This document shows positions 3,883 through 4,005 of a DNA stretch of 4,313 nt, one piece after another. Position numbers and translations under genes: made by a program. The stretch is from a virus (lineage: Duplodnaviria > Heunggongvirae > Uroviricota > Caudoviricetes): IMG/VR virus record IMGVR_UViG_2734482533_000006. One strand, written 5' to 3'. The number at the start of each line of letters is the position of its first letter. The first letter of the stretch is position 1. The notes beneath the pieces were generated by a model. That model did not search any database, had not been told where the DNA came from, and worked only from the letters and a program-made list of their open reading frames with translations.

Positions 3883-4005
3883 CTTCCTCTTCCTCTTCCT
3901 CTGGTAACGCTTTTTGATCCGTTTGTGTAACGCTGGCAGCGTTACCTTTTCGTTTCAGTTCGCGTATTTTTGTTACTCGCTCGTTTGTAACCGCCCGTTT
4001 TTTTT
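3883..4005. repeat. Candidate replication origin inside the initiator gene: (CTTCCT)x3 hexamer repeat (3883-3900), GTAAC/GTTAC half-site repeats (3904, 3927, 3941, 3972, 3987), a perfect 19-bp palindrome GTAACGCTG-G-CAGCGTTAC (3927-3945) and a T8 run (3998-4005).
   Basis: Repeats read directly from the sequence. Their position between the N- and C-terminal domains matches the known placement of ori-lambda within the O gene. Initiator binding is inference. Confidence 0.3.

Follow-up and report, generated by a model that had tools for sequence, protein, structure and literature searches.

The stretch of DNA analyzed here is 4,313 nt long (IMG/VR virus record IMGVR_UViG_2734482533_000006), and its full length is called the window below. 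Judging from its sequence, it is the early-right, or replication, segment of a Rac-like prophage, carried on the minus strand. The genes on that strand are, in order, an initiator pseudogene (3534-4210), ydaV (3527-3105), a DUF977 gene, a zinc-ribbon open reading frame (ORF), QueH, hok/sok and a DUF1367 fragment. The subject of this study is a set of inverted repeats inside the initiator gene, together with an adjoining homopurine tract. We think, with a probability of about 70%, that we are dealing with the cis-acting core of a replication origin, that of a Rac-like lambdoid prophage, and that it lies within the coding sequence of its own initiator. We infer both the binding of the initiator and the origin function from the arrangement, the conservation and the exchange of the repeats.

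The short motif GTAAC, or its complement GTTAC, is found at positions 3904(+), 3927(+), 3941(-), 3972(-) and 3987(+). An earlier note on this DNA had pointed out five such half-sites in about 90 bp; all of them are present, and they lie within 88 bp. In the whole window the motif occurs 14 times, compared with 5.1 +/- 2.2 expected, and none of 200 shuffles reached 14. The segment at 3927-3945, which we call dyad 2, reads GTAACGC-TGGCA-GCGTTAC. It is the full dyad of the cluster in the part of the gene that encodes the linker of the protein (gene nt 367-385), and its peptide is G-N-A-A-S-V-T. When it is written as GTAACGCTG-G-CAGCGTTAC, it can be seen to have 9-bp arms around a central G. That is, it is a perfect odd palindrome of 19 bp, just as the earlier note had described it. 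A second perfect GTAACGC-N5-GCGTTAC, dyad 1 (GTAACGC-CGCGA-GCGTTAC), is located at 4136-4154, outside the range covered by that note and unmentioned there. It belongs to a second cluster, in the region encoding the N-terminal domain (N-domain) of the initiator (gene nt 160-178), and is read as C-N-A-R-G-V-T. The pattern GTAACGC-N5-GCGTTAC thus has 2 matches in the window, against 0.10 expected. Because the shuffle counts for the half-sites and the expectation for the dyads are both far below the observed numbers, chance is excluded as the cause of the dyads and of the half-site excess. In intact relatives the 77-bp spacer directly before the ATG contains a third dyad, which was lost here through the insertion element IS600.

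Single half-sites accompany the dyads. The right half-site of the linker cluster, at 3903-3910, is GCGTTACC in gene orientation and GGTAACGC on the plus strand, and it encodes A-L-P. The left half-site of cluster 1, at 4159-4166, is degenerate: it is GCATTACC here, and the alignment shows GCGTTACC at this place in phage Rac and vB_EcoS-666R9. Many relative loci have a half-site at +148, which matches this left half-site. The homopurine tract occupies 3882-3902 of the minus strand and reads AGAGGAAGAGGAAGAGGAAGA on the coding strand. On the plus strand it is the (CTTCCT)3 repeat that had already been noticed as a flank of the half-sites, and the repeat is exact at 3883-3900.

Conservation of the repeats beyond the demands of the coding sequence

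Genomic relatives were collected by a degenerate-pattern scan with one genome per species, which gave 27 loci with protein identity ranging from 97% to about 31%. The same module was found in homologous genes of these 27 genomic loci, of 13 phages and of 37 IMG/VR contigs. It consists of dyads at the same two in-gene positions, flanking half-sites and the homopurine tract. The window elements at 4136-4154, 3927-3945, 3903-3910 and 3882-3902 are identical to those of the intact E. coli relatives and are in register with the 27 genomic and 13 phage loci. An alignment with related phages had been proposed earlier as a check on the repeats, and its outcome is that they stand in register in homologous initiator genes.

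In nearly all of the 27 loci the dyads lie at gene positions +148 or +160 and at +337 to +412. Perfect dyads occupy both in-gene sites in 15 of the 27, and 21 loci contain one perfect dyad or more. The 7-bp arms never change, while the 5-bp spacer varies between loci. The upstream dyad is present, with at most 1 mismatch, at about -32 to -44 in 12 enteric loci, that is, 13-25 nt before the ATG. The hosts include Escherichia, Shigella, Mixta, Erwinia, Yersinia, Serratia, Pantoea and Pectobacterium, as well as metagenome-assembled genomes (MAGs) of Planctomycetota, Saccharibacteria and Ignavibacteriae. The dyad also occurs in phages TL-2011b, Klebsiella ST11-OXA245phi3.2, Xanthomonas CP2, Ralstonia YL1, and Pseudomonas PAN70 and VW-6S, and some of the phages carrying the GTAACGC-type dyad have the variant arm GCGTTAG. 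In the 37 IMG/VR contigs, which came from a scan with the exact pattern, the pattern was inside a gene of this initiator family wherever the gene start was present.

When the half-sites were mapped, each gene showed two clusters, and each cluster has one or two half-sites in one direction followed by one or two in the opposite direction (-> -> <- <-). Their density is 4-11 within 510 nt, compared with 0-5 in the remaining ~3 kb. When the complete SPN1S and vB_EcoS-666R9 genomes are considered, full dyads (2 and 3, respectively) are confined to the initiator gene. Of the half-sites in these genomes, 8 of 16 in SPN1S (0.43 expected) and 8 of 12 in vB_EcoS-666R9 (0.09 expected) fall within 0.85 kb at the initiator.

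The genes next to the initiator vary among the loci; they include DnaC-like, DnaB-like, P-like and DUF1064 genes, methylases and antirepressors. Only the gene in which the repeats lie accompanies them throughout. This bears on the idea that a different protein from the initiator binds the sites, for example a host factor, a phage repressor or a loader. That idea gains from the fact that the fold of the N-domain is a prediction and that binding by the initiator is read from sequence. However, the hosts extend from Enterobacterales to Planctomycetota and Saccharibacteria, and the flanking genes differ while the repeats always travel with this N-domain. Regulators of the YdaT type, encoded by a neighboring gene, reportedly recognize a different inverted repeat. 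We therefore consider another binding protein quite improbable.

The layout of the linker region (gene nt 281-480) is common to 23 loci: one or more left half-sites, the dyad, the right half-site and then the homopurine run. In enteric members the tract is CCAGAG GAAGAG GAAGAG GAAGA, which is read as P-E-E-E-E-E-E. In most other loci it has a period of 5, ACC/CCT AGAGA AGAGA AGAGA AGAGA AGA, and its peptide is (T/P)-R-E-E-K-R-R-E-E. The same tract DNA encodes P-E-K-R-R-D-R in a Pirellulaceae MAG. Since the same DNA motif encodes different peptides, it is the DNA of the tract, not the peptide, that is kept. The tract is 15-35 nt long and abuts the last half-site; in 19 of the 38 genes listed it starts 1-2 nt after it. 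In most loci no homopurine/homopyrimidine run is longer than the tract, and in the whole SPN1S genome it is the longest. By nearest-neighbor stability, no 40-bp stretch of the locus is less stable than the tract in L022, L043 and L037, which are from GC-rich hosts, and it ranks second in L041; this does not hold for enteric loci or for the window. The (CTTCCT)3 tract at 3882-3902, and not the T-runs nearby, is therefore a plausible candidate, and the likeliest one, for the unwinding or loading element.

In order to separate constraint on the DNA from constraint on the protein, we aligned 24 divergent genes by codon, which gave 141 testable columns; the binomial P values from this alignment ignore phylogeny. 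In dyad 1 the codons were GGT in 21/22, AAC in 22/23, AGC in 18/18 and GTT in 22/22. In dyad 2 they were GGT (10/10) or AGT (7/7), AAC (21/21), AGC (11/11), GGC (6/6) and GTT (21/24). The A-L-P of the right half-site was encoded by GCG in 17/17, TTA in 22/22 (binomial P 4.5e-17) and CCA in 20/24. Before Asn the dyads encode Cys, Ser or Gly, and the codon is NGT in every case; in the Glu run GAG and GAA alternate. Fourteen of the 15 most constrained columns are located in the dyads, the half-site, the purine tract or amino acids (aa) 106-108, upstream of dyad 2; the exception is aa 153.

A pairwise measure of synonymous codon use led to the same regions. In 238 pairs with protein identity below 50%, the same-codon fraction was 0.80 in the element codons, compared with 0.42 elsewhere and 0.40 in the rest of the N-domain. 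The sliding-window constraint was highest at aa 49-60 and at aa 118-147. Translated into positions of the window, the constraint covers about 4133-4168 and 3871-3960, and 3961-4005 is at background. The repeats are thus conserved at the nucleotide level far beyond what the coding sequence demands, as seen from the same-codon fractions, from the TTA codon in 22/22 and from the upstream copy, which is non-coding. It could be supposed instead that the repeats are a by-product of selection on the protein, or chance, and the motifs xNAxSVT and PEEEEEE are indeed conserved in the protein alignment. However, synonymous positions are fixed, one copy of the dyad does not code, the codon before Asn is constantly NGT, the tract DNA is kept while the peptide differs, and the shuffles exclude chance. 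This explanation is already refuted by the codon analysis, and we give it virtually no weight.

Only three of the five half-sites noted earlier are conserved, namely those of the dyad at 3927-3945 and the half-site at 3903-3910. The other two form the GTTAC-N10-GTAAC pair at 3972-3991 (GTTAC at 3972-3976, 10 nt, GTAAC at 3987-3991). This inverted pair exists as reported, but it is not conserved. The GTTAC at 3972 is a synonymous variant of the window lineage (a GTT-to-GTA change), and COL60J and phage Rac have GTAAC there, so that the pair becomes a direct repeat. The Val codon behind the 3987 site occurs in only 3 of the 24 relatives. The synonymous constraint here is at background (0.36-0.52). 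We rejected the pair as iterons because of this lack of conservation. The T/A-rich flanking runs had a similar fate. The region is T-rich on the plus strand (GC 0.41-0.47, AT skew -0.39 to -0.56), in agreement with the earlier description, but the stretch at 3961-4005 carries no constraint at the DNA level. It is not a stability minimum either, and we rejected it as the unwinding element.

Exchange of half-sites and the initiator protein

Members with a more diverged N-domain have no GTAACGC, and a different dyad of similar length stands at the corresponding places. In SPN1S, epsilon15, BUCT711 and phiPSA1 this dyad is (T)GTCCGC-N7-GCGGAC(A), at +65 and at +344 to +364; Cobetia phage Carin1 has it at the linker site only (+343). 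Raharianne, which represents the GTAGAC half-site type, has TGTAGACG-N6-CGTCTACA at +153, +166 and +368. Vibrio 1.211.A and a Paraglaciecola MAG share TGTCACA-N7-TGTGACA, which is at +357 in the Vibrio member (with a relic of 4 mismatches at +151) and at +159 in the Paraglaciecola member. The Planctomycetota MAGs L021 and L027 have CTAACG...CGTTAG in both copies. The single flanking half-sites change along with the dyads, and every copy within one gene changes together; the right half-site in other subfamilies, for example, is GCGGACC or CGACTACC instead.

These changes are relevant to the idea that the palindromes work at the RNA level, as hairpins of the mRNA or as a terminator in the antisense direction, and affect stability, translation or termination. 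A stem of 7-9 bp is possible for each dyad, dyad 2 followed by CTTTTCGTTT on the plus strand matched a terminator-like pattern, and the change of both arms between subfamilies mimics compensatory change. However, within the GTAACGC group it is the arm sequence itself, not mere complementarity, that is invariant across phyla, and no Rfam family matched at the dyads. The unpaired single half-sites also covary with the dyads, and because of this we think that the DNA is recognized by a protein rather than folded as RNA hairpins. An antisense terminator at dyad 2 was rejected separately: the pattern count was 1, compared with 2.3 in shuffles, and the T-tail is absent in GC-rich members. Taken together, a role as RNA hairpins seems very improbable to us.

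A strict correspondence between N-domain subfamily and half-site was considered and rejected, since Carin1-like proteins occur with two different half-sites. The IMG/VR members L050, L059, L068 and L081 and the Carin1 phage itself (L042) have near-alike N-domains (MAGDWIKMRSNLWDDPR...), although their half-sites are GTAACG and GTCCGC, respectively. These Carin1-like members are all without the first cluster. Probably a few residues of the N-domain set the half-site specificity.

The initiator matched PHROG 2509, 'replication initiation protein', with an E value of 3.9e-89. A profile search gave 14,420 cluster representatives (50% identity) at E<=1e-3 and 6,214 at E<=1e-10, and most of the matches covered the N-domain and linker. 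No Pfam or NCBIfam model was found for the N-domain; the initiator gave a weak match to the DnaT tail only. BLASTP against lambda O showed no similarity, and there was no match to Pfam Phage_rep_O (PF04492). Its C-terminal half, however, has homologues in Gifsy-1, mEpX1 and N7 that carry the annotation of lambdoid O proteins, and PHROG 678, 'O-like', was matched as well. The C-terminal tail, ...VNTVSLPDSAIPPGFRG (window 3534-3600; L001:3035-3100), matches the tail of the host primosomal protein DnaT (2ru8_A, E 0.007), and the SPN1S homologue has a Pfam DnaT domain in place of this DnaT-like tail. These similarities suggest that the tail of the initiator mimics DnaT in recruiting the helicase machinery.

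An AlphaFold model of the protein had an overall predicted local distance difference test (pLDDT) value of 66.5, with 70-90 in the domains. It consists of an N-domain at aa 11-98 (four helices and a beta-hairpin), a disordered region at aa 99-160 and a three-helix C-domain, and the N-domain is predicted to be a winged helix. In the predicted N-domain, dyad 1 corresponds to a loop of low confidence (aa 54-57). The elements of the main cluster, namely dyad 2, the half-site and the purine tract, correspond to aa 118-145 and fall within the linker that is predicted to be disordered. In such a linker a protein can best tolerate a sequence imposed by the DNA.

The putative origin and its decayed gene

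The main cluster is located in the predicted disordered linker after the N-domain, with the position and polarity of ori-lambda, and we therefore read the region as initiator sites with an unwinding tract. The earlier note had held the same basic idea, a candidate origin with dyads inside the initiator gene, arranged and placed as in ori-lambda. The codon constraint, the non-coding copy, the covariation and the ori-lambda-like position support it.

We propose that the origin could work as follows. The winged-helix N-domain would bind as a dimer to the 19-bp dyad at 3927-3945 and to the neighboring half-site at 3903-3910. The accessory cluster about 200 bp upstream in the gene (4136-4154) would also be bound, and so might be the third dyad before the ATG in intact phages. 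The nucleoprotein complex formed over the linker-coding DNA would then destabilize the adjoining homopurine tract at 3882-3902, and the C-terminal O-like/DnaT-like domain would bring in the DnaC-like YdaV and the host helicase. In this scheme we infer the N-domain as the binder, the start of replication at this place, the unwinding of the purine tract and the recruitment of YdaV/DnaB.

Several points weigh against an origin. Each cluster has one dyad and one or two half-sites, unlike ori-lambda. The clusters are about 200 bp apart (189-300 bp), and hand computation from these spacings gave no consistent helical phase between them. The tract is not A+T-rich in enteric members; it lies outside the eight least stable 40-bp windows of the window, and it is likewise no minimum in enteric loci. 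Carin1-like N-domains are found with either GTCCGC or GTAACG, that is, overall N-domain similarity does not predict specificity. A search of a literature library gave no paper on this initiator family, and nothing of use on the position of oriJ or on YdaU-type origins. Finally, the upstream dyad beside the ribosome-binding site could serve autoregulation rather than initiation.

If this last point is extended to all copies, the dyads would be operators at which the initiator, or another phage regulator, controls the ydaU-ydaV operon. That is, they would be roadblock or repressor sites and not an origin. The enteric upstream dyad, 13-25 nt before the ATG, abuts the AGGTG ribosome-binding site, and the symmetry of a dyad is suited to a repressor that binds as a dimer. 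In iteron plasmids, Rep dimers occupy the inverted repeats at rep promoters and thereby bring about autorepression. On the other hand, the upstream copy is absent from most non-enteric members, in which the gene overlaps its upstream neighbor. The universal part consists of the in-gene clusters and the purine tract, and no promoter-like match was found near the dyads. An operator also leaves unexplained the homopurine tract 1-2 nt after the last half-site. We think it unlikely that the dyads are operators instead of an origin. Autoregulation is nevertheless the main alternative, or an additional role, because the operator and origin roles are not mutually exclusive.

In the window the gene that carries the putative origin is dead. 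The initiator pseudogene (3534-4210, minus strand), a member of the YdaU family and PHROG 2509, is truncated at its 5' end and has two frameshifts, as seen in three-frame translation. Its intact counterparts are 262-codon ORFs with 97-98% identical DNA, which megablast found in hundreds of E. coli genomes. The E. coli copies are annotated 'phage replication initiator YdaU family protein' and are followed by ydaV. The gene is also present in phage Rac MN652886 and in vB_EcoS-666R9, where its annotation is 'DNA replication protein O'.

The inactivating lesions were read from an alignment of the window gene with three intact copies. The first frameshift is a 10-bp deletion with its junction at 3860/3861, where one copy of AGGGGGATTT / AGGGGGAGAT is gone between two AGGGGGA repeats. 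The second is a T8 run at 3998-4005, where intact relatives have T6, that is, two extra T. Both indels are of the slippage type, one being the loss of a 10-bp direct repeat containing AGGGGGA (3860/3861) and the other the change from T6 to T8 (3998-4005). In addition, homology to the gene stops at 4210, where IS600 has taken the place of the upstream dyad and of the ~103 nt with which the initiator gene begins in intact copies. The earlier remark that the initiator is possibly dead is thus borne out by the IS600 truncation at 4211 and the two frameshifts. In the close relatives from Shigella flexneri SFBU1023 (L004) and E. coli ECMA0423 (L005) the upstream dyad is kept, the initiator ORF has 210 codons and the purine tract is shortened. 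The shortened ORF and tract suggest independent decay of the same initiator gene in other strains.

With its gene dead and its upstream dyad gone, and with a linker core otherwise as in intact relatives, the window copy is, as far as the sequence tells, a fossil origin. Since the core at 3882-3945 is identical to that of the intact E. coli copies, its use in trans is possible in principle. At most, the fossil origin could titrate the initiator that a co-resident phage of the same specificity supplies, or be used by that initiator. Whether it would fire is uncertain, because the lambda origin needs transcription in cis (PMC5043065) and IS600 sits upstream here.

The left end of IS600 (IS3 family) occupies 4211-4313 on the plus strand, with the transposase start at 4275, and is 99% identical to an annotated 'IS3-like element IS600 family transposase'. 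The 109 IS600-end bases of the window are present in 3,060 of 5,426 complete E. coli genomes, and a near-full-length copy of the window stretch is found in about 680 of the 5,426. The gene ydaV (3105-3527, minus strand) encodes a DnaC-like ATP-binding protein according to the RefSeq annotation of homologues, with a weak IstB-like match, and YdaV is presumed to be the helicase-loader partner of the initiator. It is interrupted by 41 N at 3124-3164, which is a masked stretch in the source record and not biology. The hok/sok toxin-antitoxin module is located at 988-1313 on the minus strand (Rfam sok RF01794 at 1138-1313, 117 bits), and a Hok-like ORF (MKQQKAMLIALIVICLTVIVTALVTRKDLCEVRIRTGQTEVAVFVDYESRK) lies inside ORF 988-1200 of this module. 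A full-length QueH (epoxyqueuosine reductase) gene is also found within the prophage segment, at 1371-2057 on the minus strand (PF02677, E 1.9e-65).

It is tempting to extend the reading to the whole family, and we hold the chance of the following generalization to be somewhat below even. Nested half-sites (-> -> <- <-) with an adjoining GA-repeat tract may serve as the origin in every member of a very large initiator family that lacks a Pfam model (14,420 representatives, in Proteobacteria, Planctomycetota and Saccharibacteria), with half-site swaps, a common tract and peptides dictated by the DNA. If this is true, lineages swap the half-site sequence and so create new origin specificities, and all members share the purine tract as an element that acts sequence-specifically in unwinding or loading. 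The most conserved linker motifs of the family, xNAxSVT, A-L-P and PEEEEEE / REEKRREE, would exist for the sake of the DNA and not of the protein. The origin and its specificity would be readable from sequence for thousands of uncultured phages. To our knowledge, only a small number of temperate phages, mostly lambda and those close to it, have an origin established by experiment. The present findings give a testable, sequence-level origin prediction for a large initiator family (6,214 representatives at E<=1e-10) whose DNA-binding domain has no Pfam model. They also offer natural specificity variants for working out how the predicted winged-helix domain reads its site, and a clear case of cis-acting DNA dictating conserved peptide motifs. 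The decayed, IS600-disrupted Rac-like prophage itself still has an intact putative origin core, which could titrate a related phage's initiator or respond to it.

Comparison with known origins

In lambda, O dimers bind the iterons and open the adjacent tract, and two iterons with the tract are enough for unwinding in vitro (PMC5043065, PMC7466680). The four dyad iterons of lambda, each 18-19 bp long, lie at O codons ~117-145, after the Phage_rep_O domain (residues 22-115), and are followed by a purine-rich A+T tract on the coding strand, ...ACAAAAGAAAAAAGAAAAGA... The present element resembles ori-lambda and the 6-iteron origins of the Stx phages 933W/P27 in that the origin, here a putative one, is inside the initiator gene, in the linker DNA after the DNA-binding N-domain (PMC5043065; PMC7466680). 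It also shares with ori-lambda dyad-symmetric repeats of about 19 bp suited to dimers, a strand-asymmetric purine-rich tract 3' on the coding strand, and a place in an early-right operon gene with the helicase-loader gene next to it.

In contrast, the N-domain of the window type does not belong to Phage_rep_O (PF04492), and Pfam has no model for it. The sites form two or three -> -> <- <- clusters rather than 4-6 tandem iterons, with one cluster in the N-domain coding region and one upstream of the gene, and the tract is a GA-repeat homopurine run, whereas lambda has a 40-bp A+T-rich block. The likeness to ori-lambda drawn in the earlier note therefore holds for the in-gene linker position and the polarity, but not for four tandem iterons or for a lambda-O (PF04492) initiator.

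The origins of iteron plasmids (P1, F, pSC101, R6K) are similar in having replicon-specific initiator repeats beside an easily opened tract, and in these plasmids, too, inverted repeats near the rep start can autoregulate. The repeats in the window differ in that they are dyads and lie within the coding sequence. The iterons of plasmids are direct repeats, bound by monomers and located outside the rep coding sequence, whereas the lambda iterons are bound by dimers (PMC5043065).

The Rac prophage of K-12 is the same type of prophage with the same gene order (repressor, ydaS/ydaT, ydaU, ydaV, ydaW), and its origin, oriJ, has been reported to be active (PMC3945230). The C-terminal 124 aa of its YdaU are 81% identical to those of the present initiator. 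However, only these 124 aa are shared: the YdaU of K-12 has a DUF1376 N-domain, and its gene has no GTAACGC dyad. We therefore rejected the possibility that the present element is the oriJ of K-12 Rac, which has other repeats in the linker. The K-12 ydaU gene has four or five copies of AGATGTTCAAACA, both direct and inverted, at the same place in its linker (L031:4472-4578). These repeats are candidate oriJ iterons, judging from their sequence and place. As both the N-domain and the linker repeats differ from those of K-12, it seems that a different module of initiator and origin specificity has been swapped into a Rac-like backbone. This is the swap that is expected if the N-domain and the origin repeats travel together.

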